Positions 1-17,411 of a DNA stretch of 49,848 nucleotides are shown here, piece by piece (the stretch's first letter is position 1; the number at the start of each line of letters is the position of its first letter). Source of the stretch: Cyanophora paradoxa CCMP329 (taxonomy: Eukaryota; Plantae; Glaucophyta); contig QPMI01000238.1 in the NCBI GenBank assembly GCA_004431415.1, forward strand, positions 1 to 49,848, in the 5' to 3' direction. The translations under genes and the position numbers were made by a program. The notes under the pieces are model-generated. The model saw only the letters and a list, made by a program, of their open reading frames with translations. It ran no database searches and had not been told where the DNA came from.

Positions 1-1603
1 CCATGTGATCACCACAATTGCTACTTTGGTTTGCTTTGAGATTCTCCTGTGGAGGTTGCAGTTTCGGCATGCTTTCCCAATAAATGCTCCTGATTGATGA
101 CAATGGTCTCTCACTGGGAAATTCTCATGGGTAATCGTTCAGCACAGATTAACAGTGTTTAGTGATCTGTATTGGCTTTCTGCTCTCTGTGAGTGGTGAT
201 TGGAATATTGTGAATAGAGTGCGGAATTATTGGGGTCTGATCTCTGTGAGAGTGGTAACAGAGCACAAGTGGATCTGATCCCTCGAAATAATGAGAATCA
301 CTTATCCCATCACAACTGTTAAAGAACGATTGACTCTCTTTTACTGCGGTTCTCATCAATTGGAACCGAGTGATGTCATTTTTACATAGCAGATAGTGGG
401 AAGCCACACAGTTTTGCGAAGGTGTTGAAGCCCAAATGCAATGTGATTCCAGATTTCGGGCATTTACCTTTGCTCTCCTCCATCAATGCAGCGATTCGCT
501 TCTATATGAACATCCAGCTTCTCCTGAGTTCTGAAACGAGACAGACAGGTCTCACAGTAATAATGCGACATCATGGGTTTCAAAGGTGTTTTCAGAGTCT
601 ACTAGAGACATGATGGTGATATAATGCCCTTATCCTCTTCGTTTTCGATTATAAAAGGTTAATCTTGGTCTTTCTCCTGGGTTGCTGGATTGATGGAGAG
701 GATAGAACACTGTGCTTGATTATCTGCACCATAATGTTGATACTCAGTTCAGGGTTCTGCTCCTCAAATCGATCATAACCTCTGCATCACAGGCAACTGG
801 AACTGGATGCCTTCGAAATTGAGTTCGTTTAACCATCTTTATACTGGCTGGGTTCATTGCTCTTGTGTTTATTAATTCATTTCGGTGCAGGTAAGCCAAG
901 ATTGCATACTTGAGCAGTCTTGACCATCAATATTCTTCACATTACAGTTGCTCTCTTGATCCAATCCACTCAGGTGTTGAGAAGAAGCACCACCACAGGA
1001 GCATAAGACATTATTACCACTCTCAGCATCTCATGCGATCCAGTCTGTAACTGTCACCTGCATCATCTGCTCCTGCATGGATTGAAGGGCATTCGCAGTT
1101 CAACATCAATATTTCGTGATCTTGTGATGACAAGTATCACTGTAAATGAATTTCGTGATCCACACCCTGGGATCACTCACTTTGGTGAATTTACAAATGA
1201 AGGTCAACCGAGTTTTAATTGCTCTCAGGTCTTGGAGTTTCTTCTGAGTCTCTGAGGTAGAGTAGGTGCAATTCTCTCCAAGAATTCAATCCCATCTTGG
1301 ATAACCTCCCTCTGGCTCGATAGGTTAACCAGGAATATGCTTGTTCATGGCTTCCCCATCTTCAATCTCGGGTTCAATTGTTCCAACCTTAAACCTTCAT
1401 CCCTGAATTCCTCCATTTTCTCAAAACGATCATAGAGGCGATTTGTAATTTCTGTGAGTTGAGATAATCTTGGTCTTCTGTCCAGACTGCTGCCTGGCGA
1501 TCATATTCAAATTCTGTAATATCACCAGTGACTAAAAGGGTTCCTAAAAGACGAGTATTTCGTTTTTCTTCTCTTTGATGATTCTATTGGATTGGCGGGG
1601 CAT
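1..1603 (-). pseudogene. Protein-primed family-B DNA polymerase (pPolB), N-terminal half, many frameshifts; runs off the left edge
   Basis: Manual minus-strand translation across 1-bp gaps gives, in the expected order: NVKNIDGQDC(F)KYAILAYLH (~880-943), WLNELNFEGIQ(F)PV (~795-835), DRFEEQNPELSINIM (~733-775), HYITIMSL (~603-626), YYCETCLSRFRTQEKLDVH (~505-562) and VRDHCHQSGAFIGKACRNCNL (52-114). This is the motif series of EndoVII-containing Polinton pPolBs. Candidate ATG at 1601-1603. The frameshifts may be sequencing errors. Confidence 0.85.
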
Positions 1604-1705
1604 CTTTTACTTTAAGGGAACATATTATTTTTGGGCAATTTGAACGCATTTCGCATTTTTCAGGTTCTAATGATTCGCACATTCGTGCCTTTGGGACATA
1701 TACAT

Positions 1706-1849
1706 TTACTGTGTCAAGTCTGCTTGCATGGAATCGCTTCTTTTGATATGGTCTACCATTACTGGCTCTGATCTTTGCATATATTCCGCTACCTCTGCAA
1801 TATCATTCTTTTCGACCAGCTGCCGCTGAATTTCGTCGAAATAATCCAT
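1706..1849 (-). CDS. Small viral hypothetical protein (47 aa as read; may be frameshifted and longer)
   Basis: ATG at 1847-1849 (MDYFDEIQRQLVEK...), preceded by the CAAAAATTGAC-N5-ATTTAAGGG motif seen upstream of other viral genes. Confidence 0.3.
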   Translation of the reverse strand: MDYFDEIQRQLVEKNDIAEVAEYMQRSEPVMVDHIKRSDSMQADLTQ

Positions 1850-1880
1850 GTTCTGTCAAAGTCAAGGAAAACGCAATGAT

Positions 1881-1905
1881 CCCTTAAATCGCCAGTCAAT
1901 TTTTG
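1881..1905 (-). promoter_or_regulatory. Putative early promoter CAAAAATTGAC-N5-ATTTAAGGG
   Basis: Same bipartite motif with the same spacing at 5043-5067; contains the AAAATTGA octamer. Confidence 0.6.
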
Positions 1906-1987
1906 TCAAAACACACCATTTACGATACGTTTTATATTGTCCGATAAAGAATCGAAAAAGTCATCGACCCACAGGGGGAGTCTGTGG

Positions 1988-2147
1988 TTAATTGGGTGTG
2001 ACGCCTGTGACGCCTGTGACACCTGTTTTCAGAGGTTTGTAGATTTTTGAAATTTTAAAAAGTTTGAAAGTAGGCGTCACAGGCGTCACAGGCGTCACAC
2101 TCAATTAAAAAGGTGTCACAGCTGTCACACAAACCATTTACAGTAAG
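1988..2147. repeat. Iteron/origin-like cassette A
   Basis: TGTGAC(G/A)CC at 1997, 2006, 2015; 49-bp AT-rich core 2024-2072; GGCGTCACA at 2073, 2082, 2091; arms 1988-2024 and 2072-2108 pair at 35/37; two extra degenerate units 2112-2129. Reverse-complement homolog of cassettes B and C. Confidence 0.9.
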
Positions 2148-2198
2148 GTTTTTAAAAAATAAGAAATTCAATCAGTATTAGAATCGATTCTGTTTTGT

Positions 2199-4555
2199 TT
2201 ACTCATCCCCACCTTCAACATCACTGTCATCCACCAACTTGCGACTATGCTTCTTTTTGATCCCAAGTAGCCACGAGCAAGAACACCATTGACTCGCTTT
2301 CTCTCAGCCTTCACATTAAAGACTTCGCGAAGTCTCTTCAAGATAGTGCATTCTGTGATTTTCTCATCAGATTTGCCATGTGATCCATCTTAAAGTGACT
2401 GATAATGGACTCACTTGTGGCGAAATCCCTTGACTCTTGGTGAGTTCATAACTCTCACGAATCCATTCTCCAATCTTGTCATTCTCATTGAAATATTCAA
2501 CACCTTGATCAACAATGGACTGGGTGGTTGGTGACGAATTCATTGAGAGAATGGGTTCTCCACATTTCCAGGAGAATGGACATATGCGCCATTTTATAAT
2601 CGTCATCATTCTTCATTAGGCGCATTAGAGTGGTGTCTGCTTTCTTCTCACCAGGCTGAGGATCGACCTTGAAGACATTTTCGAATCGGTAGTAGATAAT
2701 TCGCCTTTGGATTGCTGCATCTGGTTTACTGATTCCCAGGTTGTCATTTGTGGACAAGAACAACTGGAACATGGGAATGAATGTAACAAGATCTTTGAAA
2801 AGAGCTCGAACCTTCATCTCATTCCCACCAGTAACCTGTTTGATTTTGTTCAGTTGAAGCATATCACCATCTTCTGCTTCATTACTGAAAACAATTCGTT
2901 TACCAAGAATGCAAGCGAGTTCTGGGGAAGCCTCTGACGAACTCTTCTTGGTTTAGTCCAATATGTCATGTCCAGTGACCCATAATACTCACCAAATGTG
3001 TCTTTCACCAACTCTTGGAGCAGTGATTTCCCATTTGCTCCAATTCCAGTCCAGCAAGTGTATCTCTGATTTTCTGTCAAACCACTCAGGGCATAGGCGA
3101 TTAATCCCAGCATGAATTCGCGGTCTGTATCCGATTCAATAATATCTGCATAGATGGATTTAATCTTTGCAACCTTCTCTTGGTCAATTTCTGTGGTGTA
3201 ATCGTAGCCAACAGTCTTACTCACCATATCATATGGGAGTCCCTGTCGAAAAGTCATGGAGTTCAAGTCAAATACACCATTTGTGAACCCAATGATGTTG
3301 GGAACAGTATCAAGTCTCTCGAAAAAGGTCTTGTCACTGAACAGAACTGAAAGATCAGACATAAGTGCAGTTCTGTATGTAGTCTGTTTGAGGCTCTTAG
3401 CAATTCCCAGCAGAATCTTTGACCTTTCCTCCAAGGAATTGCGGTTCTCTTCATCACGAAGAGCTCTCTGTGCGAGTTGAACAGAACGTTGAAGATAAAC
3501 TGGACAGACCTTGCAGCTCAAACAGAGAAAGATTCGCTTCCCAGTTTCATCCATCTCCCAAATCCCACATACATCATTGAACTTGAACCAGGTCTTGTTG
3601 GAATACTTGTATTTGTCTTGCAGAACAAGATAGGCAACCTGTGCAACATCATAATGGGCACCATCAGATCCAGCAGACCGATCAATCAGATTTTCGATAT
3701 TCGCATCTGTCTCTTCCTTCACACGAATTGTGATAAGTCGCTTCTTGCAGTTTGCACTGTAACTCGAAACAATATATTTGTCTTTCTCCTTCCCTTGAAT
3801 AATATACCAATTGTTTGAGTCATGGCTTCCCTTGCAGCAGGGACAGACCAGACCTTTGTTCTCAGCAGTGAAATTGTATCCCATCTTGGTCTCATTGATG
3901 ATTGTGGGCAAGATGAAACCGAATTCTTCGAGTTTAGAAAGAATATGTTTCTGCAAATTCTCCTCAGCGCACCTTGCATAATAAGAATGTGCACCTTTGG
4001 GGAATTCGTAGTTTTCAACAATCCACTTTTGCAACTCAGCAGTGGGTTCATTTAACTCACACTCAGATGCCCATGGCTCTCTGATCCATGTTTTGTTGGG
4101 ACTGGGGCAAACATTAATCACCCCAGCAGTCCCAGTGGATGCAATCGTTTTGCAGTCGATCTTGGGGTTTCCTTTGAATGCACCCGCTTTATCCCAGATC
4201 TTAATGGTGTCGAATTCAGCAGGTCGAGCGAAGAATGCATGATATCCTTTTTTGGTTTTAGCAAGAGGATTAACACCACCGAAATCATCAGGAATTGCTC
4301 CTCGAATTTGGCGAAATCCTCCTCTTGGTCGAAGTCAATTACCAGGATATTACGAGCGAGAATGCCCCAAGCAGTATATTTACCGGATTTCAGGGCTTCA
4401 TCGAATTTATCCCAAGACCAGGTTCCGTCTTTATGAGCGAAAAGTGGCTTTTTGGTATCAGGATCAACAGGAATAACGATATTCTCAGACAGGACATCGT
4501 CTTCACGAAGCCATTCAACAAGGCGTTTCAGGGATTTCTTGGCGGCAGCGTTCAT
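2199..4555 (-). CDS. Prim-Pol (AEP) primase fused to D5-like SF3 helicase, about 785 aa once frameshifts are corrected
   Basis: Joins ORFs 4118..4555, 2850..4121, 2509..2862 and 2367..2609. Prim-Pol motifs IPV..TKKP, WGILARNILVIDFD, TKKGYHAFF, IDCK..GVINVCPS; Zn-binding CPCCKGSH; D5_N-like IGFTNGVFDL; Walker A GIGANGKS; SPELA..GKRIVFSNE; IKQVTGG; AIQRRI; C-terminal RVNGVLARGY; TAA at 2199-2201. Frameshifts near 4291, 2945, 2525 and several in 2260-2430. Confidence 0.9.
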
Positions 4556-4586
4556 TTCAACAATCGGGGGCTTCTTATCCTTAATG

Positions 4587-4639
4587 GAGAAATTAATTTC
4601 TCCGGTCGCTTGTCATTTTTTGGCGCCTAACCTTTAAAT
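4587..4639 (-). promoter_or_regulatory. Putative promoter of the primase-helicase gene (ATTTAAAGG, CAAAAAATGAC and ACCGGAGAAATTAATTTCTC boxes)
   Basis: All three boxes recur upstream of the ORF starting at 4977. Confidence 0.55.
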
Positions 4640-4749
4640 ACCTTTGGGTTCTCCGATTGGCGCTCGATGTATGGTAATGATCCATCGAAAAGTCGATTGA
4701 TCATGGTAACAAAAAGGATTCAGCGGATATCTGGGACTTTGGGGGCGGT

Positions 4750-4977
4750 TCAGTATTTTCTGGGACGACCTACTGGGCGTTTCACTGGATTATTGGGATC
4801 CATCTCAGCAGCTTTCCTGCGATAATATCGTTCCAGTGCCTTTTTACGATATAATTCTCGAAATTCCTCATCTTGATAGCGTTTCTGGAAATACAAGCGG
4901 TCATACAACCTTTTCCTCTCATTGGGATCCACCTCGCTCATTGCAAGTTCGAATTCGACCACAGATTCAGTTTCCAT
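4750..4977 (-). CDS. Small basic DNA-binding protein with C-terminal AT-hook
   Basis: 75 aa, R/K/Y-rich helix ending KRPVGRPRKY (GRP AT-hook core); conserved upstream motifs. Confidence 0.7.
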   Translation of the reverse strand: METESVVEFELAMSEVDPNERKRLYDRLYFQKRYQDEEFRELYRKKALERYYRRKAAEMDPNNPVKRPVGRPRKY

Positions 4978-5001
4978 TTGATATGTTCCTTATAATGGGA
5001 C

Positions 5002-5067
5002 GAGAAAATAATTTGTCCGGTTCACCAATCAAACACACCTTACCCTTAAATCCCTTGTCATTTTTTG
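5002..5067 (-). promoter_or_regulatory. Putative promoter CAAAAAATGAC-N5-ATTTAAGGG plus ACCGGACAAATTATTTTCTC box
   Basis: Matches the motifs at 1881-1905 and 4587-4606 (18/20 identical for the ACCGGA box). Confidence 0.6.
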
Positions 5068-5177
5068 CAGATCGAGACCAGTTCCTGTCTACGCTTTTTT
5101 ATTGCGGCTTCTGTTGCATATTCAGCGGATTTCCTTTCAAGGATAGCATAGATCTCAGAGAGACTGAGCATTCGATA

Positions 5178-5411
5178 TTAATTACCGAGATTTAATTTCG
5201 GATCTGTGAAAGATACAGACCTGCGCCTCACTGTCTCTGTTTTAATATGCTCTTCGAAATCCACCGAATCTGTGGATAATCGCCTACCACCAGATCCATG
5301 ACTCTCAGTGTCAGAGAATTCGATTTCGACTTTGGTTTCACAGCAGCCACTGTGACAATTGCTCACAATGTGGAGATTGAACATCTCTATGAGTTTTCGC
5401 AAGAAATCCAT
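5178..5411 (-). CDS. Viral hypothetical protein (77 aa, CHSGCC motif)
   Basis: ATG-started ORF packed tightly in the co-oriented viral gene run. Confidence 0.6.
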   Translation of the reverse strand: MDFLRKLIEMFNLHIVSNCHSGCCETKVEIEFSDTESHGSGGRRLSTDSVDFEEHIKTETVRRRSVSFTDPKLNLGN

Positions 5412-5438
5412 GATGCTCTCTCTCTTAATGCGAGATAA

Positions 5439-6173
5439 TTAAAGCCAAACTCGTCGTTTATATACTGTTGGGGCAACACCTTTATCGACCTCTGATTTGG
5501 TAGCACCAGGTTCAATGGTGCCCTTCTGGGTTTTGGTCTTCATCTCATCAACTGCCTGCTCATCAATTTGAGTCTCTTTCTTACCAATGAACTGCTTATC
5601 TGGGAGACCAGTGATTCCCATTCTATACACCTCCTTTCGCAGCATCTCCTTTAATTTCGCTCTCTCTTTCTTCTCAGAGACATACTGTTCAAGAGCACTG
5701 GATTTCGCTTCCAGATCTTTAAGTTTCGCAGTCATTTCGTCCCATTGGGCTTTGGGAATTCGATGGATATTCTGTGTAGGTGCGACCTTGTAGGTTACCT
5801 CACCAGCCATGGATTGAATTACCTTGTCTGATTCTTTGGATACACCTTCACCTTTGCGAGCAAGGGACAGATCTTGGAGACCCAGTCCTTTGTCATCAGC
5901 AGCACCAATAATTCGACGAGCACCTTCACCAACTGCCTTCATCTTAGAGGTTTCGGGCGAAATATTCAACTGGTCACTTGTGGAAGCTTGGGGAGCTTTA
6001 TCATCTGGTGATTCTTCGTAAGCAGCATTGAGGGGATCTTCTTGTTGCTGTGATGCTTTAACTTCATTGACACCATTGAATTTCATGGGCTCTGTGTTAA
6101 TAGAACCGGTTCCAGAGGATGCAGAATATGACATAGCACCAGCAGGAACACCAACTTTGCGTTTGGAAGGCAT
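5439..6173 (-). CDS. Viral hypothetical protein (244 aa, K/E-rich, coiled-coil segment; possible virion core protein)
   Basis: Long intact ORF immediately downstream of the ATPase with 27-28 bp intergenic gaps; function not recognised. Confidence 0.75.
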   Translation of the reverse strand: MPSKRKVGVPAGAMSYSASSGTGSINTEPMKFNGVNEVKASQQQEDPLNAAYEESPDDKAPQASTSDQLNISPETSKMKAVGEGARRIIGAADDKGLGLQDLSLARKGEGVSKESDKVIQSMAGEVTYKVAPTQNIHRIPKAQWDEMTAKLKDLEAKSSALEQYVSEKKERAKLKEMLRKEVYRMGITGLPDKQFIGKKETQIDEQAVDEMKTKTQKGTIEPGATKSEVDKGVAPTVYKRRVWL

Positions 6174-6201
6174 TGTATATTTATTAGAAGCAGAGATTAT
6201 T

Positions 6202-6984
6202 TTATAAACCTCTCTTATATCGCATCAGTTTATTCGAATGAACACCACTCTTGACCTCTTTGGGGGCTTCCTCTTTCTGTGGAGGTGGTAATTCGTCCTC
6301 TTTCTTTTTGGGCTTCCTGTGGAACCGAGGAAACTTAAAGTCTTTAACGAGTTCCGCTTTATCAACGTAGTATTCCACCGAATAATTCGCAGAACTCCAA
6401 ATGAGAAACTGATAGGAGTGAACGTATTCCTCAAACATCTTATAGAAAGCGTCTTTATCCCGCATGATATTGTATTCTTCTTCAATGGCTTCCAGTTCTT
6501 TGCGATTGGCGGCACTGAGGAACATTGCATAATCCGAATTGACGCGAATGGTTGAAGAAACCTTACGCAGTTTCTGAGTTATGCAGAAAATTGTAATCGC
6601 CGAGTGGCGGCCGCGCGAATACAGAGATCCAATAATTTTATCACGGGTAAGGTCTACAATCTCATTGTCTATAAGATCATCGAGAACAACACATAATTGA
6701 TTAACGGGTTCTCCTTTCTCAATTTTCTCTTGTCTTTCATCGAGAAGTTTAGCGATGTAAGGCGCATCCCATTTACCGAGCTGTAATGTTGCGACATCAT
6801 CCCAAAAATGATTGAATGATGTCCCACTTATAACAAGAACAACATCTAACTTTTTCGCATCGTGAAGTTGTTTTAGCCAATATTTTACGGCTTCTGACTT
6901 GCCCGTCGCGCTTTTTCCGATTGCTAATACGCGAAAAGGGGGTTTAATCATCTCAGCAGCATTAAATTCGGGAACGTCAGACAT
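6202..6984 (-). CDS. A32-like (FtsK/HerA superfamily) genome-packaging ATPase
   Basis: PPFRVLAIGKSATGKS (Walker A), LCVVLDD (Walker B), SRGRHSAITIFCITQ and TIRVNSDY, which are signature motifs of A32 ATPases. Confidence 0.95.
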   Translation of the reverse strand: MSDVPEFNAAEMIKPPFRVLAIGKSATGKSEAVKYWLKQLHDAKKLDVVLVISGTSFNHFWDDVATLQLGKWDAPYIAKLLDERQEKIEKGEPVNQLCVVLDDLIDNEIVDLTRDKIIGSLYSRGRHSAITIFCITQKLRKVSSTIRVNSDYAMFLSAANRKELEAIEEEYNIMRDKDAFYKMFEEYVHSYQFLIWSSANYSVEYYVDKAELVKDFKFPRFHRKPKKKEDELPPPQKEEAPKEVKSGVHSNKLMRYKRGL

Positions 6985-7046
6985 GGCTTTGTAGATCTTT
7001 CTTATTAAAGATAGATAAAAATAACGAAACGTTACTGATAATGGTT

Positions 7047-8420
7047 TTACAGATTAATGCGACGAAGACCATCTTTGTCAACAATAATGAAACTGTGCAT
7101 GAGAGCACGAACATTAACTGTGATTGTCTGGTCAGAAGGCATGTATAGAGTAAGGAAAGAAGAGGAGGAGTTCGTGAGATCAACATAGCCAGACTGGGCA
7201 ATGTTGCGAATCGCTTTCTCTCCATCAACACAGAATGGTAGACCACTGAGGACATATTTGTCTGCAACCTTGTCCATATTTGAGCACTTGAAGGCATCCG
7301 CAATTAATTCGGCACCTTTGAGGAGAGGGATGGGCTCAGTAGCATAGAGACGTTGACCATTAATTTCAACAGTGAAAGTAATGTCTTTTGAGTTAGCATG
7401 CGTTTTTAGGACACTGTGGGAACCATTGAAACCATCAATACCTGCGGCATCACGAACTGAAACAAGAAGACCATAGACAAGACCAGAGATCTGTGACAGG
7501 TTAATACGATTTGGTTGAGCATTGCCTTTTGCAGCAAAATTGACACTGTCAACAAAACCAATATCCAGAGCAGGAATAGCCATACCAGTGGTCTTCACCT
7601 TCTCAATGACAGTAGCAAACAGTTCATCAGAAACATTAATAGCATGCATGTAAAGACGAGGAGAAGTGACTTTAATTTCGGGGGTTGTTGTTGCACCAAT
7701 TCCAAAAGTGGTGATTTGTTGACCAACATGGGCAAGAGTAGCATTAGCAGTAGCACCAAGTCCATCATCCTCTGTCTTATCAGCAGCTGTTCCACCAACA
7801 ACAGGAAGAGCACGACCACCATAAGAAGTCTCAACATAACCCTTTCCAGCATCCTTGAACCAGACAGTTACCACCATTTCTCCTGAGAGAGCACCAAGAG
7901 GTAGGTAGTGGTTTAGCCATGGGACTGGGATTTCAGTGAAAAATGACCCACCAAGTCGGTTGGTTCCATGGGCAGGGATACCATGAACCATTCCCATTGA
8001 ACGCTTCTTCTTGGCGAGTTGATCCTCACTGTAATAGATAAGAGGGAAATGAGCAAGGAAATCAGAAGGCACATGGAAGGTGTAAGATCCATAGGTAATT
8101 TCAAGTCGAGAGACAAGAGCACCAACTGGGCGAACGTATCCATTGCGAACAAGGTCGGTATCACCAGCAAAAGTGACAGCTGGAAGGTCAAACGCAAGTT
8201 CGAGTTTTCCACAGAAATTGTAGCGAGGGAGCTTGAAAGAAATGCGATTTCCAGCATTATTCTCGAAAGTGTTGCTTGGGTTCACAACAACAAGAACTGG
8301 CTTCGACTTGGATTCAAGACCAAGCATGAGAGAGTTGTCCAAGAAGAACGCCTTGGCTTCTTCCGGGGTTGTTAGAGCTTCTTTCAGAGAAAGACGTTGG
8401 AGGGTCGAAGTAATATCCAT
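7047..8420 (-). CDS. Double jelly-roll major capsid protein (457 aa from ATG 8420)
   Basis: GNRISFKLPRY..LAFDLP, GALVSRLEITYG, IPVPWL..YLPLGAL..MVVTVWF follow the DJR Capsid_N pattern; size and position between ATPase and penton genes fit a PLV MCP. Confidence 0.85.
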   Translation of the reverse strand: MDITSTLQRLSLKEALTTPEEAKAFFLDNSLMLGLESKSKPVLVVVNPSNTFENNAGNRISFKLPRYNFCGKLELAFDLPAVTFAGDTDLVRNGYVRPVGALVSRLEITYGSYTFHVPSDFLAHFPLIYYSEDQLAKKKRSMGMVHGIPAHGTNRLGGSFFTEIPVPWLNHYLPLGALSGEMVVTVWFKDAGKGYVETSYGGRALPVVGGTAADKTEDDGLGATANATLAHVGQQITTFGIGATTTPEIKVTSPRLYMHAINVSDELFATVIEKVKTTGMAIPALDIGFVDSVNFAAKGNAQPNRINLSQISGLVYGLLVSVRDAAGIDGFNGSHSVLKTHANSKDITFTVEINGQRLYATEPIPLLKGAELIADAFKCSNMDKVADKYVLSGLPFCVDGEKAIRNIAQSGYVDLTNSSSSFLTLYMPSDQTITVNVRALMHSFIIVDKDGLRRINL

Positions 8421-8474
8421 GATTATCTCTTTTATTATACTGCAACATAAAAAATTCACCAATGATCCTTGATT

Positions 8475-9485
8475 TTACGCAAAATTCGCAATAACCGGAT
8501 AAGATGGATGTGTTTCCGCCATTCTCCTCTTGAAGTATTCGTACACAGGATCACCAGCAGGTTCATCACCATATCGAATTTCGAAGGTGAGGTGGACAGG
8601 TTGACCCTCGAAATCAATTGGTTCATTAACTGCATTCACAATATCAACCGAAAATGTGGAAAGTCCCAGATTCTTGTTATAGTATTTATAAATCGGATGG
8701 GCTTCTGTCGAATTATAAACGACATGCTCACCATAATCTTTATCTGGAACAACGATTTTGTGGAAATATCCAGTGAGGAGACCATCACCACATTGAACCA
8801 GATCACCCAACTCCTTTACTCTCACAAACAGAACACTATCCCTGGTCTTTTCAGGTTCAAATGAAGATATGATACCATGCACCATCGACCCAGTAAAGAT
8901 ACCATCAGTCAGAGTATTATAAACTTGTGATTGGATTGGGGTGTTACCATATCTCCCAGGATCAAGACCAAGCAGTCGAGCAGAACTCAAAAACCTCTGA
9001 ATCTGCGCCTGGGTTGGGTTTATTGCAGTTGAGAAAGCCAGGTAAAACGGTATGGTGGAATGGAATATTACTCGTTTCAGTGTATCATCCCATTTACAGC
9101 GAATTGCTACTGGTGGCTCTCTCAATGCAAGTTTGGAGTTAATTACATTCACCAGTTGTTGGTGGTTTTGAATGGGTGTGCTGCGACTTATCACAATGTG
9201 CTTCCATTGCTCATAATCGGCAGCAGGTCGATCAGTTGGAATACCAGTGCTTCCTGCACCAGAATAATATTCAGACCAATAAAGGTAGATTGCATTATCT
9301 ATTGTCACATCTCCTACTTTGGTTTCACCACTCACCATGGGAATGCTGTTATAGAATTCTGCTGAAACCAGTCTTACTGCTCTCACAAATTCATAGGTGC
9401 TGGGGAGGCGAGCAATAAAACTCGAAGTAGGTCCATCTCCCGAAATTGTATTGAAAGAGCTCACTTCGATGTAATCCACAGGCAT
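8475..9485 (-). CDS. Minor capsid (penton-like, single jelly-roll) protein 1
   Basis: N-terminal IEVSS..SSFIARLP..VRAVRLVSAEFYNS; C-terminal LFVRVKEL..FSVDIVNAVNEPIDFEGQPVHLTFEI, the PLV/Polinton mCP pattern. Confidence 0.75.
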   Translation of the reverse strand: MPVDYIEVSSFNTISGDGPTSSFIARLPSTYEFVRAVRLVSAEFYNSIPMVSGETKVGDVTIDNAIYLYWSEYYSGAGSTGIPTDRPAADYEQWKHIVISRSTPIQNHQQLVNVINSKLALREPPVAIRCKWDDTLKRVIFHSTIPFYLAFSTAINPTQAQIQRFLSSARLLGLDPGRYGNTPIQSQVYNTLTDGIFTGSMVHGIISSFEPEKTRDSVLFVRVKELGDLVQCGDGLLTGYFHKIVVPDKDYGEHVVYNSTEAHPIYKYYNKNLGLSTFSVDIVNAVNEPIDFEGQPVHLTFEIRYGDEPAGDPVYEYFKRRMAETHPSYPVIANFA

Positions 9486-9513
9486 CTTCTTTTATCTATA
9501 AACATATATTAAA

Positions 9514-10446
9514 ATGATTCGGCTGGTCAATATAGATAGCAGAGACCGATCAGATGGACAAATAGAAAACTCCTACAAAGTTTCACTCACAACCCCAGTG
9601 ACCAAACCAAGAGAATGTCGAGTTTTGTATGCAGAGATCCCCAACAGCATCTATAATTCCATTGGAACAGACCACCTTCTTGTCAGATTCTTCTACCAAG
9701 GCATCTCTGAAACCAAACAGGTCTTCCTTCTCCCAAGTGGTTATATTAATCAAGGGCATTTCGGGGTCACCAGTCCATATAATTATGGTCTGAATTTCAC
9801 ATTTACTGGGAGCAACAATCTCACATATGCATTCAAAGTCTACTATAATCCTACCTCCTACAAATTGGAGTTTTACAGTAATGTTCAATTCGAGATGGTA
9901 GCATCTACACAGAGATTGGGTAAACTTCTTGGGGTTAGTTCTGTGGAGTGGGTCGCTTCAATTGAGCAAACCTACGATTTCCCAGAGTCTGCAAGGTCTT
10001 TATATGCCCCCGAGAATTTCCTCTATTTTGCAGGAATCCCAATCACCCCAAACCATCCACAATGGGGAATTACATTTACAGGATATGAATTCGAGGCATC
10101 TCGCTTAAACTACAAGTTAGAAGCAGCCAAGATGACAGACATGAATGCAGAACAGTATTTATACATGCACATTAAAGAACTCTCCCCATTTGCTACAAAC
10201 CACAATATTGTCCCAAGATCACAACCACAGAATCAAGGGGCGATTCTCAGATTGCAGTTAAGTAAAGATATTGGGCAGTATGTATATCACAGTGGAGAGC
10301 ACAGTGAATACATAAAAATAACCGATCGAAACCTGGTGATTAGAGAGTTAACAGTTGAGTTTCGAGATTATTATGGTGATCTTGTAGATATGAATGGGAT
10401 TGACAACTCATTCCAGTTGGAGTTCTTGGCTATTGGTAATGATTAA
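9514..10446 (+). CDS. Minor capsid (penton-like, single jelly-roll) protein 2
   Basis: N-terminal VNIDSRDR..YKVSL..RVLYAEIPNSIYN; C-terminal YLYMHIKEL..LTVEFRDYYGDLVDMNGIDNSFQLEF. Confidence 0.8.
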   Translation: MIRLVNIDSRDRSDGQIENSYKVSLTTPVTKPRECRVLYAEIPNSIYNSIGTDHLLVRFFYQGISETKQVFLLPSGYINQGHFGVTSPYNYGLNFTFTGSNNLTYAFKVYYNPTSYKLEFYSNVQFEMVASTQRLGKLLGVSSVEWVASIEQTYDFPESARSLYAPENFLYFAGIPITPNHPQWGITFTGYEFEASRLNYKLEAAKMTDMNAEQYLYMHIKELSPFATNHNIVPRSQPQNQGAILRLQLSKDIGQYVYHSGEHSEYIKITDRNLVIRELTVEFRDYYGDLVDMNGIDNSFQLEFLAIGND

Positions 10447-10696
10447 ACCGATCCTGATAGAAGAACTCTCCATCTGTCTCGAAAATATTAAGAAGGGGAC
10501 TCTTAGCATCCTCTGTATACCATCGGCGAATTGTCTTATCCCATTTAGCACCATTCTTTTTCAAGAATCTACAAAGAGTTGATCTCCTTGTAATTCGCAA
10601 TCCCATCTCTTGAAAGATCTCATAATGATCTTGCATTCTATTCACAATCAAGATGTAAGTTCCATGGAAATTGTGATATTGCTGGTTAATCGGCAT
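10430..10696 (-). CDS. Small viral protein with a DUF5710-like motif (88 aa from ATG 10696)
   Basis: LKKNGAKWDKTIRRWY matches the K.xGAxWD...xWY motif; the start at 10696 is supported by CAAAAATTGAC at 10728-10738. Confidence 0.6.
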   Translation of the reverse strand: MPINQQYHNFHGTYILIVNRMQDHYEIFQEMGLRITRRSTLCRFLKKNGAKWDKTIRRWYTEDAKSPLLNIFETDGEFFYQDRFNHYQ

Positions 10697-10718
10697 GTTT
10701 CCTTTACAGCATGATGGG

Positions 10719-10738
10719 AAATCGTTTGTCAATTTTTG
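10719..10738 (-). promoter_or_regulatory. Putative early promoter CAAAAATTGAC-N5-ATTT
   Basis: Fourth copy of the motif, about 32 bp upstream of the ATG at 10696. Confidence 0.55.
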
Positions 10739-10871
10739 GCGAAACGAGAGTATCTCATGAGATAGATGAGAGAATAACAGGTGTGTTTTCAGGGTTGGAG
10801 AAATCGGAGAAACATAGAGTATTGCGATTTCCGAGTTAGTTGACACTGAGATTTTCAGAATTTCAGATGGT

Positions 10872-11052
10872 CTTACTGAAAATGGTCAGATAATCGGGTG
10901 TGACACCTATTTAATTGACTGTGACGCCTCTTTAATTGACTGTGACGCCTGTGACGCCTGTGACGCCTACTTTCAAACTTTTTAAAATTTTCAAAAATTA
11001 CAGACTTCTGAAAACAGCCGTCACAGCCGTCACAGGCGTCACACCCAATTAA
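10872..11052. repeat. Iteron/origin-like cassette B
   Basis: TGTGACGCC at 10941, 10950, 10959 (extra units at 10899 and 10920); 49-bp core 10968-11016; G(C/G)CGTCACA at 11017, 11026, 11035; inverted relative to cassette A. Confidence 0.9.
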
Positions 11053-11182
11053 AAATGGAATCTCTTTCTCTTACTGAGATTCTCGAGAATATATTCTTGT
11101 CTTACTGAAATCCGTCTTGTGACACCTCTGACACCTCCAAAACACTATCCATTAATCAACCTTTTTGAAAATGCGAAGTTGT

Positions 11183-11334
11183 CTTACTGGAAATGGTCTG
11201 CAATTTTGCTGTGACACCTAATTTAATTGAGTGTGACGCCTGTGACGCCTGTGACACCTACTTTCAAACTTTTTAAAATTTTCAAAAATGACAGACTTCT
11301 GAAAACAGGCGTCACAGCCGTCACAGGCGTCACA
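11183..11334. repeat. Iteron/origin-like cassette C
   Basis: TGTGAC(G/A)CC at 11232, 11241, 11250 (extra unit at 11210); 49-bp core 11259-11307; G(G/C)CGTCACA at 11308, 11317, 11326; direct repeat of cassette B. Confidence 0.9.
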
Positions 11335-11447
11335 GACATTCCACCCCTCTTACTGACTTTCTCAAAAACAAAACTATCTCTTACTGAATATCATTTGAAT
11401 ACTACCTGTCACACTTGATCTCAATTATTCTGTTTTATAGAACATAT

Positions 11448-11706
11448 GCAATCTAATCGAATGTTCAATTGGAGACCATGCAACTCTGTGACACTTTTTT
11501 CAATCTAAAATATACATCCGCAATCTCATCGATTGTTTAATTGGAGACCATGCAGTTCCGATATATTCCAATAGAAAATCCCGCAATCTAATCGATTGTT
11601 TAATTGGAGATAATGCAACTCTGTGACACTTTTTCGGTGCAAAAATGTACATCAGCAATCTCATCGATTGTTCAATTGGACACAATGCAACTCTGTGACA
11701 CTTTTT
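11448..11706 (+). repeat. Subterminal tandem array, 4 units (periods 72, 63, 72 bp)
   Basis: Core GCAATCTmATCGAwTGTTyAATTGGAsAymATGCA at 11448, 11520, 11583, 11655; units 1, 3 and 4 continue ACTCTGTGACACTTTTT. Confidence 0.85.
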
Positions 11707-12026
11707 GCGTTTTTCGATACAGAATGGGCGGTGGTCTACTTCAATACATGAGAGATATATCGAGTTTATGCGAATTTATGCAATTTAATCGCGATTATAT
11801 CGATCTTTAAGTAGTTTAATGTTAATCTATCGCAGATTTGTATGTAAACAACAAAGTACATAATCAATCGATATAAGATCAATTGAATCTATCGAAGTTT
11901 AATCGAAAATATGCATTTTGGAAAACGCGTTTTCGTTTTTAATACAAAGTTTGCATTATTTTATACAAAGTTTGCATAAAAAGTTAAAGAAATTAATCGA
12001 AAAATATGTATTTTAGTATTAAATTA

Positions 12027-12111
12027 ACACATATTGAAAAACGAATTTAAATCCAGGAGCGAAGCGCGAAGCGCGAAGCGGAGGGATTTAAATTCGTTTT
12101 TCAATATGTGT
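12027..12111. repeat. Perfect 28-bp inverted repeat with a (GCGAAGC)3 loop
   Basis: ACACATATTGAAAAACGAATTTAAATCC (12027-12054) and its exact reverse complement (12084-12111); the 29-nt loop has GCGAAGC at 12059, 12066 and 12073. Confidence 0.95.
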
Positions 12112-13490
12112 GACATCGATGTCGGCGTCACCGAGTGCGATTCTTTCACTGAACTCCGGAGGCGTAGAGATGACCGGCGAGAGAATTGAAATGGTCCCGG
12201 GGTGCGATCGGGGTGCGATTTGCAGCGCTCGTCAGTTTTCGCTGACCCCAATCGTCGGCATCCTCAGCTTCGAAATGGGCTGCTGCGGTATAGAGCCGAA
12301 CGAAATCCCTGGAGCTGGGTTGACCAGCCTCGGCACGCGCGACACGCCAGTCCTGTACGCGACTTGGTCAAGTTTCAAGGACGACTATGTTATGGCGAAC
12401 TCCAAATATGTGTATGCCCATCAACTGAACGTCACGAGTGCGATCATTGTTTTCGCACTCATTATTGAATCATGCAATATTTATATATTTCTCCCGCAGT
12501 GCCGCCCACCCCGACACCGTCCGCGACGCCTTCGCCGTCTCCGACCCCCTCGGCGTCTCCGTCGCCGTCCCCCTCGCCGTCCGCGATGCCCCCGCCGTCT
12601 GCGCTGCCCACTCCGCCTCCGCCTGCGGATCCGATCGCGACCCCCACCACGATTCCGGTACCTCCTCCAACGACGCCGACGACCGAGCAGCAGCAGACTC
12701 AGGCCACTAGTACTCCGACGCCAACTGCAGCTGCTCTGCCACTTGCAGTTGCACCACTGGTGCGGATTGACTGAAAGCTGGAGTCTGCATTTGATCTCAA
12801 CCACTTGCTTGAATGTGAACGCGATCGCGTGCAGCCCTTCATCACCAAGAACGAGAGCAAGGAGGTCGTCGTCGGCAATTTCAAGGTTCGAATCGACTTC
12901 AAGATTTTCCATCACCATTCATATTACCGCCGTTGACAATTGCGCAACAACAGTTTAAGCCGACGGATTTCAAGCCTGACAAGGTGTAGTTTTTTTTATT
13001 CCCCTGACTCTCCGTCACGTGTGCGTAACTATAATCTCGCGACATCGCTAAAGCTTGTGAACGCCAGGACGCGGATGGCAAAAATGTTTACAAGGTCCAG
13101 CTTCCTGCAGCGGTCGTCTCTGCTTCAACGGTTCACTCGCTTGCACTTTGTTTTGTCATGATCAACGGTTATTCCTCGTCATACTGACCATGATCGCAGA
13201 CCGGATCCAGCGCGAACAATTTCGTTATCATTCCAGTCACCGGCGTCCTCGAGGTGCGCTCAGTGCATATATCAATTTCTCGAAATAATCCGATCGATAT
13301 TCAGCTCCCGATAATCAGCTCCCGATAATTAGAACCTGTGTTTACACAAATGTTTAAACGAATGCAGGTCGGGGATAAAGTGATCGTGTTCATCATGAGC
13401 GCGGACGGCAAGACAAAGCGTCCGGCAACGCAGACTTCCGTCGAGGCGTCCGGCAACGACGTCGTTCTCAAATTCAGTAAGAACGGATAT
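12112..13490 (+). pseudogene. Possibly 5'-truncated spliced host gene with a Pro/Ser/Thr-rich linker
   Basis: Codon-like exons bounded by GT..AG (e.g. acceptor at 12499; PTPTPSATPSPSP tract; VGDKVIVFIMSADGK exon); in-frame TGA at 12772-12774; the 3' end may extend to about 14.1 kb. Confidence 0.35.
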
Positions 13491-15714: not shown

Positions 15715-17411
15715 GGCGAGGTCGAGGCCTTCGAGATATATATGTACGTACGCGTCACACACACGGCGTTTCTGATCATGAAGATGAGACGTCGACAACC
15801 CTCTGATGCTAGACTGATAGCCAGTACTAGTACTATAGCTAGTGATAGGCGCCTCATGCGCTAGCGCTAGCGCTAGCGCTGGATCGAGCTGCAGCTGTCA
15901 AATATAAACGTTGGTTCATTCACGTGCACCGAAACCTGGGATACGTATATACGTGTTTAGATCCCCGGGTACGTGTTTAGATCCCCGGGTACACGCGGCG
16001 GCGGCCGCCGTCGACGTCACACCGGCCTCTCTCGCCTCTGCTCTCGATTCTCCGTACCCTTCCAACAGCTGCACTAGTACTCTATCTCCTCCTCCACCCT
16101 CCCTTCCCCCCTCGAGCTCCTCGGCCTCTGCTCCGCCTCCGAGTGTCGGCGAGACTGTCCTCTTTAATTTGCGGTCTCCCCGTCCTTCCGAAGTTCCGGC
16201 TCCCTGCTCCCTCTTCGGCACCTCGGGTCTCCGGATCCTCTGCGGGTCCTGTCCCGCTTCCTGGTGCTCGTGAGGTTCGCCGCCGGCGCGCGCCCTCGTC
16301 GGGCCCTTGCGCCCTCGAGCTCGTCTAGATCTCTCTCTGCACCCTCCAGATCTAGAGCCCCGGTGCCGCCTGTTACGGTGCCAGCCGACCTTCGAGCTTC
16401 CTCCTGCTTCGTTGCCCCCTCTTCGTGGTCCTTCCTCTGCCTCCGGCCCCTCCTCGCGATCGCCTCCCTCCTCGCCTCTTCCTTCCCCCCCGCCGCGTTC
16501 CGTCGCCGGGTACCGGTCTCTATATATGTCGACCCTGGAGTCTCCGCCTGCCCCTGTCTGCAGCTGCAGGGCACTTCCGGACCCTCCGCCATATATGGCG
16601 GAGTGTTCGAATTCGGCGCCGGCATCGACTGTCAGTGCGCATGCTTTACCTAGCTATAGTAGCTGCCCCGTCTTGGCTCTCCGAGGACGTCTTCGAATTC
16701 GTCGCGATCGTCGCCGCGGGGCCTGGCCGGCGCGCTGACAAATCCCCGGGCGCCTTAAGCTTCGAATTCCCCGGCTGCGGACGTCGACGCGGCGCCGGCG
16801 CCGGATCCGGACGCGGGCCGGGTGCCACGGTGCGTCGGATCCAGAGCCTCGGAGTCGGAAGGCTGCGTCGGTGCCCCGCGCGCGGCCGTCCGCTCTGACG
16901 ATCTCGAGACCGGCGGCGGCCACGTACATGCATATGTACATGTACAGCTACGTATACGTGGTGCCGGCTGCACGCGCAGCTGCGCGCGGCCGCGGCCGCG
17001 GCCGCGGGCTAAAGCTTGTCCGAATTCGAAGCTTAAGGCGCTGCGGGTACCGGTGTTTCAGCCGTGTTCGAATTCGTCTTCTTGATCTGAATTGAGCTTG
17101 ATCATGATCATGAGCCGCGCGCGCGCGTGCGCGCGGGGCGGCGGCTCGGATTTCATCTAGCTGACTCTTGTTGCGCCAATTGCAAGTGAGCGCTTGTTTT
17201 CAGCCGCTGTGCACGTGGAAGCAGAATCGATATCGACGCCGGTACCGGTGATCATGAAGTTCACGGTTCACCGTTCACCGAAAACCGGGGTACGAGTTTA
17301 GACCCCGGGTACACGTTAGGAGCAAGGGTTCGTTTCTCGGCTTCGCAGCCTCGCGCGGTCTCAGCGAAAGTTGGAAAGATACCGTCAGCCGCGTCGCGTC
17401 TTTCCGAAGCG

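Follow-up and report, generated by a model that had tools for sequence, protein, structure and literature searches.

An integrated element in the glaucophyte Cyanophora paradoxa CCMP329 raises in concrete form the question of how replication begins in Polinton-like viruses (PLVs) and virophages that lack protein priming, or do not use it: are the three repeat cassettes of this element, one of which lies beside its primase-helicase gene, the sites at which that enzyme is loaded onto DNA? The window, i.e., the whole stretch of 49,848 nucleotides that was analysed (contig QPMI01000238.1), has a GC content of 35-44% from base 1 to ~12113 and of 50-81% in the remainder. An earlier note on this DNA had read the cassette as an iteron-based origin of the SaPI kind within a eukaryotic Polinton-like virus.

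Judged by its gene content (Table 1), the element is indeed a Polinton-like virus, with a capsid protein and an A32-like ATPase in an integrated low-GC stretch. The features found are not those of a bacterial, helper-phage-dependent island, as they comprise a jelly-roll capsid, an A32 ATPase, eukaryotic host DNA and a helicase that falls in a eukaryote-virus clade. The capsid protein shows 59% to a Cyanophora paradoxa protein, and PLV-like sequences in Cyanophora have already been mentioned in the accessible literature. Scans of IMG/VR for the helicase, the ATPase and the exact iterons gave no close relatives with DNA; the capsid and the ATPase had one homolog each, and the phage records contained no match to the ATPase. 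A family search with the two related-looking genes beyond the capsid gene gave no match; from their position and a presumed likeness, they may encode minor capsid proteins. The match of positions 1-1850 to a Polinton-type protein-primed polymerase is weak and concerns only the N-terminal part, which is what lies within the window, and the likeness of its motifs to those of such polymerases is presumed; this stretch is error-ridden in the assembly, and the reads show many extra letters there.

Table 1. Features of the integrated element, with positions in the window
Feature	Position	Strand	Details
Cassette A	1988..2147	.	TTAATTG, 3 TGTGAC boxes, core 2024-2072, 3 inverted boxes, CAATTAA, outer boxes at 2115 and 2124, CAGTAAG; orientation opposite to that of B and C
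Cassette B	10872..11052	.	Core 10968-11016; one outer box duplicated (21 bp)
Cassette C	11183..11334	.	Core 11259-11307
Prim-Pol / D5-like SF3 helicase / winged-helix gene	2199..4555	-	Pfam D5_N, DUF5906, weak Prim-Pol; PHROG primases; colinear with P0005; probable 3′ end
Probable N-terminal half of Polinton-type protein-primed DNA polymerase	1..1850	-	Weak Pfam Endonuclease_7 (E 0.002), zinc-finger (E 0.03-0.08); runs off the window
A32-like packaging ATPase	6202..6984	-	Pfam Pox_A32, E 4e-9
Major capsid protein (double jelly-roll type)	7047..8420	-	Atlas feature match 0.98 to Capsid_N/Capsid_NCLDV clusters, with a recognition score that falls short of the tool threshold
Two related-looking genes	8475-9485 and 9514-10446	- and +	Open reading frames
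Terminal non-coding region	10700..12113	.	Contains B, C, 72/135-bp repeats and end hairpin; GC step at ~12.1 kb; host-depth contig starts at 12084
End hairpin	12027..12111	.	Perfect 28-bp arms

In each of the three cassettes, three TGTGAC boxes with a 9-bp period lead into a 49-bp core that is followed by three inverted boxes. The three direct 9-bp repeats, AT-rich core and three inverted repeats that had been described are present in copy A at 1997-2099, where the boxes start at 1997, 2006 and 2015 (the third reads TGTGACACC) and the inverted boxes at 2073, 2082 and 2091. The same geometry recurs, as claimed, in B (10941-11043) and C (11232-11334); all 18 core hexamers of the three copies are exact, but some of the 3-bp spacers in B and C differ (GGC). 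Copy A aligns with B and C in the opposite orientation over 134 nt at 91%. The cores have an AT content of 78-80%, and the best alignment of core A with those of B and C needs one base lost and one gained; since B and C are 96% identical, the constancy of the core length within the window amounts to one independent comparison. The module is larger than the extent first flagged, as every copy has TTAATTG at the outer box, an extra box 21-22 bp further outward, and CTTACTG 27 bp past that box.

The cassette geometry is far above chance: a motif-agnostic detector found exactly three cassettes in positions 1-12200, namely A, B and C, and none in the 37.6 kb host part of the window or in 100/100 Markov shuffles. 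Among the three copies the box columns are hardly better kept than the others (42/48 vs 85/104). Ranked by 40-bp melting temperature, the cores belong to the lowest 0.9-2.1% of the element, where eight other sites melt more easily than core B. The cassette had been placed directly downstream of the helicase gene, which is true of copy A, whereas B and C belong to the terminal non-coding region, more than 6 kb from the start of that gene.

Eighteen DNA runs of one organism contain 70-74% of the sampled words. Copy A and its link to the gene are backed by short-read contigs: a gap-free contig of 126 nt spans 1974-2099 with one differing letter, and read contigs join the right arm of copy A to the helicase gene. 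In the assembly this gene is spread over several frames, but the breaks are absent from the read contigs, and because the reads carry a single additional letter at each of six sites (2264-2949), supported at full depth in 4/4 runs, the frameshifts are probably assembly errors. With the frame corrected, the helicase stop probably lies near 2199 and not at 2168, so that the repeats would be some 70-100 bp away from it rather than the 50-90 bp first given. In two runs, the depth of the helicase contig exceeds that of the host-flank contig some 26-fold (1840 vs 70 and 3053 vs 118), a rough hint of a multi-copy family of elements. Reads at 2148 reveal, again in two runs, a cassette copy whose flank is absent from the window, which suggests a fourth copy or a sister family.

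The nature of the enzyme was approached through a relative, P0005 (775 aa), which shows 35% to the window's longest helicase fragment and is colinear with the window pieces over residues 8-705. Its AlphaFold model (pLDDT 84.5) matches SaPI5 PriRep (Z 25.2, rmsd 5.6, 400 aligned), vaccinia D5 (Z 30.2) and, at the N-terminus, the pRN1 Prim-Pol (Z 11.4), and it also resembles the primase-helicases of ASFV and poxviruses. The winged-helix C-terminus that had been proposed for the helicase is recovered on this relative, residues 694-763 of which fit the RFX winged helix (Z 9.2, rmsd 2.0, 68 aligned); in the window the helicase tail is in pieces, the first of which fits the family C-terminal profile (E 6e-8). 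These matches support reading the element's helicase as an SF3 primase-helicase with a C-terminal winged helix. In a quick tree of 49 rows, which omits L087, the window helicase groups with D5 proteins of giant viruses and virophages (SH-aLRT 98), apart from the prokaryotic helicases that bear cassettes. Because it groups with proteins of eukaryotic viruses, a recent import from phage is not indicated.

Scans with the TGTGAC cassette pattern gave at least 80 loci in IMG/VR and 17 in metagenomes (at least 97 in total), which were dereplicated into 45 clusters, one of them holding 38 loci; 47 open reading frames, 40 chosen by script and seven by hand, were scanned with Pfam. Among the matches listed, the cassette lies at the 3′ end of a Pfam D5_N, DUF5906, Pox_D5, VapE or DUF3987 helicase gene in 22/45 clusters, within a span of ~420 bp upstream to 290 bp downstream of the stop and in several cases inside the coding end; with the strict 3+3 pattern this holds for 10 of 15 clusters, again among the matches listed. 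The other 23 clusters listed, several of which are short contigs, have no Pfam helicase at the cassette, although four have a P-loop open reading frame of no assigned family. In two of the clusters listed the cassette is 5′ of a D5-like gene. All inspected loci look bacterial or archaeal, and among the open reading frames inspected none of the at least 97 loci has the look of a eukaryotic virus. As the search pattern was our own choice, the prokaryotic set shows the use of this motif and not its frequency.

The same set bears on the core, which had been called invariant. Although 49 bp is kept in all three copies of the window through a compensating indel, the inner gap, 55 nt in this element and in two of the 45 clusters listed, ranges from 36 to 71 nt across clusters, and the 49-bp core length is not a family constant. 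Helical phasing of the core lengths is weak (Rayleigh P 0.04-0.08 over five periods tried), and neither a universal core length nor 10.5-bp phasing was established. Many prokaryotic cores are not AT-rich. Inverted TGTGAC cassettes occur widely at SF3 helicase genes, both in phages and in what seem to be archaeal elements (L003-L099), and many of them have alternating GCGCGC cores. As to a correspondence between iterons and winged helix, two eukaryotic cases come with DNA, TGTGAC here and GGTGAG in the virophage described below; TGTGAC also accompanies very different prokaryotic helicase tails, at loci that were picked by this motif.

Starting from the helicase, the picture is different. None of 79 giant-virus-type D5 loci, 74 of which have at least 400 bp downstream, has a cassette near the stop, and a relaxed detector gave 5/74 vs 17/504 control windows. 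Nor was a cassette found near the stop of the eight actinophage D5-like genes examined (out of 23 matches), which have the same winged-helix tail; given these two results, the cassette is not general to D5-like genes or to the winged-helix tail. One candidate, L111, was rejected, since four direct repeats follow its helicase but the facing set is absent. In a second giant-virus set, which largely overlaps the first, the matches were scattered and chance-like apart from L187, a complete 31.8-kb virophage with a Sputnik-type capsid (E 2.5e-116) and a D5-like primase-helicase. There, a motif-blind detector found three GGTGAG inverted-repeat cassettes in both orientations (903-1018, 8552-8676 and 16833-16952). 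L187 offers the best independent parallel among eukaryotic viruses, down to the dispersal of its three copies. All three are intergenic, none directly follows the helicase gene and one lies ~600 bp before its start. Searches of PDB sequences with two virophage open reading frames gave no match, and the Pfam DJR-like domain matched neither the virophage record nor the controls. Positions 13392-14702 of L187 hold a TET-associated glycosyltransferase-like gene.

Origins of related design are known in several systems. SV40 T antigen and papillomavirus E1 are SF3 helicases of eukaryotic viruses that recognize repeats at their own origin by an N-terminal origin-binding domain and contain no primase. 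The window helicase has in common with them its eukaryotic-virus SF3 nature and the repeats, and differs in the C-terminal position of the winged-helix tail and in the fused primase. The accessible text of PMC7581432 names the origins of both; there and in bioRxiv 10.64898/2026.10.17.759575, the SaPI ori is described as lying just downstream of rep, with opposed iterons around an AT-rich region that are bound by the winged-helix C-terminal domain. The element resembles these accounts in its fused primase-SF3 helicase with a winged-helix tail, as in SaPI5 PriRep, and in the opposed iteron arrays that flank an AT-rich region, the position downstream of the gene being shared by copy A only. It differs in being a eukaryotic virus with a jelly-roll capsid and a helicase of the giant-virus/virophage D5 group, in its core cassette of ~100 bp with a strict 9-bp period (vs 300 bp in the SaPI description) and in its three copies, two of them in the terminal region; its origin function is a prediction.

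For PLVs themselves, Barth et al. (2024; PMC11296320) proposed that inverted repeats serve as origins for the primase-helicase, reported for Gezel-14T a repeat of >300 bp in the terminal inverted repeat and just downstream of an 'end module', and presented a model in which PolB is replaced by an invading helicase. The element agrees with the accessible part of this account in having a repeat common to the terminal region and to the end of the replication module. In contrast, its shared repeat is inverted and is resolved to boxes, an iteron/AT-core anatomy that is absent from the accessible part of that account, and a probable protein-primed polymerase still stands beside the helicase. The earlier note knew of no description of an iteron-based replicon in a PLV; at the level of iterons none was found, but inverted repeats as PLV origins are in print. 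No text with both 'polinton-like' and 'iteron' was found in a literature search that had subscription papers and supplements outside its scope (e.g., Supplementary Figure S4 and Table S15 of Barth et al., on helicase-flanking repeats), and only Barth et al. was found for PLVs, origin and primase-helicase together. The cassette is likely a SaPI-type origin in a eukaryotic virus and, as such, a variation on a design already known.

The cassettes might also act otherwise than as origins recognized through their boxes. Each copy folds as one long hairpin (z -13.1, -10.5 and -7.9), the arms of copy A pair over 59 nt at 83% with the core included, and the enzyme's N-terminus fits the pRN1 Prim-Pol on the P0005 model, which would suit an origin read as structure, extruding as a cruciform or stem-loop in the manner of pRN1 or phage BIP-1, with the GTG of the repeat as priming site for a pRN1-type Prim-Pol. 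According to the accessible text of PMC4234260, pRN1 requires a stem-loop of 100 nt, situated 54 bp beyond the 3′ end of its Prim-Pol/SF3/winged-helix gene, and priming by its ORF904 occurs at GTG; the element shares the three enzyme domains, a ~100-nt palindrome shortly 3′ of the gene and the GTG. Moreover, spacers of the prokaryotic cassettes listed pair across the arms above permutation (85/135 vs a mean of 41), although homogenised 9-mers would account for this pairing too. We nevertheless regard this reading as unlikely: a stem does not require tandem 9-bp repetition, whereas the arms in the window are tandem hexamer repeats in three copies, and pRN1, in the same text, has no iteron array and can dispense with its GTG motifs. 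Where a conserved structure without iterons would be expected from pRN1, the hexamers are exact while the stems of B and C are mismatched at spacers, which favours boxes over stem. The boxes could, in turn, belong to another protein of the element, as arm sites of a recombinase or integrase, as sites of packaging initiation or for a transcription regulator, with the position of copy A being incidental. Such a site is conceivable, given that most copies stand apart from the helicase: the terminal region contains two of the three along with several single boxes, one box occupies the host junction (12109), and the virophage cassettes are intergenic; in addition, some phage cassettes among the matches listed are near terminase genes, and copy A adjoins a promoter-like motif at 1895. 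This appears quite improbable in view of the clusters whose cassette sits at, or even within, the 3′ end of a helicase gene. Furthermore, recombinase sites have a spacer of 6-8 bp, quite unlike a 49-bp AT-rich core, and no integrase is visible in the window, beyond which the left part of the element extends.

There is very little to be said for a transcript 3′-end hairpin of the giant-virus/virophage kind, for although copy A is a palindrome just past a stop codon and one virophage cassette lies between convergent genes, B and C do not come after any gene, the gene starts on either side of another virophage cassette are divergent, and the open loop greatly exceeds the loops of a few bases in the Mimivirus hairpin rule. 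A host MITE, a satellite or an assembly artefact is just as hard to credit. The assembly is error-prone in the cassette/helicase region, contig depth, when summed, is several-fold higher over the cassette than over the helicase gene, and of the 20 loose read ends found at the cassette (among 22 listed of 23) two have an AT-rich flank absent from the window. However, by eye the other 18 of these listed ends are flanks of B or C, none of the 20 is GC-rich or host-like, the short reads confirm copy A, and sharp ends or target duplications are not evident at the cassettes. Among these loose ends and in the 37.6 kb of host DNA within the window, there is no sign of dispersal as a host MITE, which had been named in advance as grounds for giving up the origin reading.

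Our preferred reading is that the three cassettes are probably origins of the SaPI type, at which the element loads its own primase-helicase. It draws on the geometry, the position of copy A, the enzyme domains as seen in the colinear relative and the recurrence of the layout beside helicase genes; against it, two of three copies in the window and all three in L187 are not 3′ of the helicase, and a probable protein-primed polymerase, which would start at the ends, seems to count against it as well. If the cassettes are origins, two hexamers would dock by their winged-helix tails on the facing TGTGAC arrays, bending the DNA and opening the AT-rich core, and priming of both strands would fall to the N-terminal Prim-Pol. 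Of the three copies, A would act as the origin linked to the gene, and B and C would be terminal-region duplicates that may serve as further origins or as titration sites upon excision and amplification of the integrated element. A much wider proposal, which we put forward tentatively and consider rather doubtful, is that replication of those PLVs and virophages that have D5-like primase-helicases starts at several internal iteron origins of the SaPI type, whose shared GTGA core also serves bacterial and archaeal viruses, and that this element may have been caught in the middle of replicon replacement, with primase-helicase and origin beside the gene of a protein-primed polymerase and origin copies seeded into the terminal region. 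A cassette of ~100 bp with defined boxes and a predicted binding domain, together with a virophage case, can be tested with one domain and one oligonucleotide; it also provides a signature for scanning thousands of PLV and virophage genomes and would allow a sequence-level test of the replicon-replacement model.

Several other features of the element deserve mention. It probably has two replicases, as the probable Polinton-type polymerase adjoins the primase-helicase. The motif CAAAA(A/T)TGAC occurs on the minus strand at 1895, 4612, 5057 and 10728, upstream of four genes, and is absent from the host part of the window; two copies contain AAAATTGA, which we take to be a Mimivirus-type early promoter that hints at a giant-virus helper. 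A small basic open reading frame at 4750-4989 with its own promoter-like motif ends in RPVGRPRKY, presumably an AT-hook-like tail, and may encode an accessory DNA-binding protein. In the terminal region, the 72/135-bp repeats at 11448-11761 each contain TTAATTGG, and three of them also have a single TGTGAC box. The arms of the end hairpin, which lies 2-3 bases from the host junction, enclose AGGA, three tandem units of GCGAAGC, an unusually stable mini-hairpin, and GGAG, and this hairpin is possibly an end for integration, resolution or hairpin priming.
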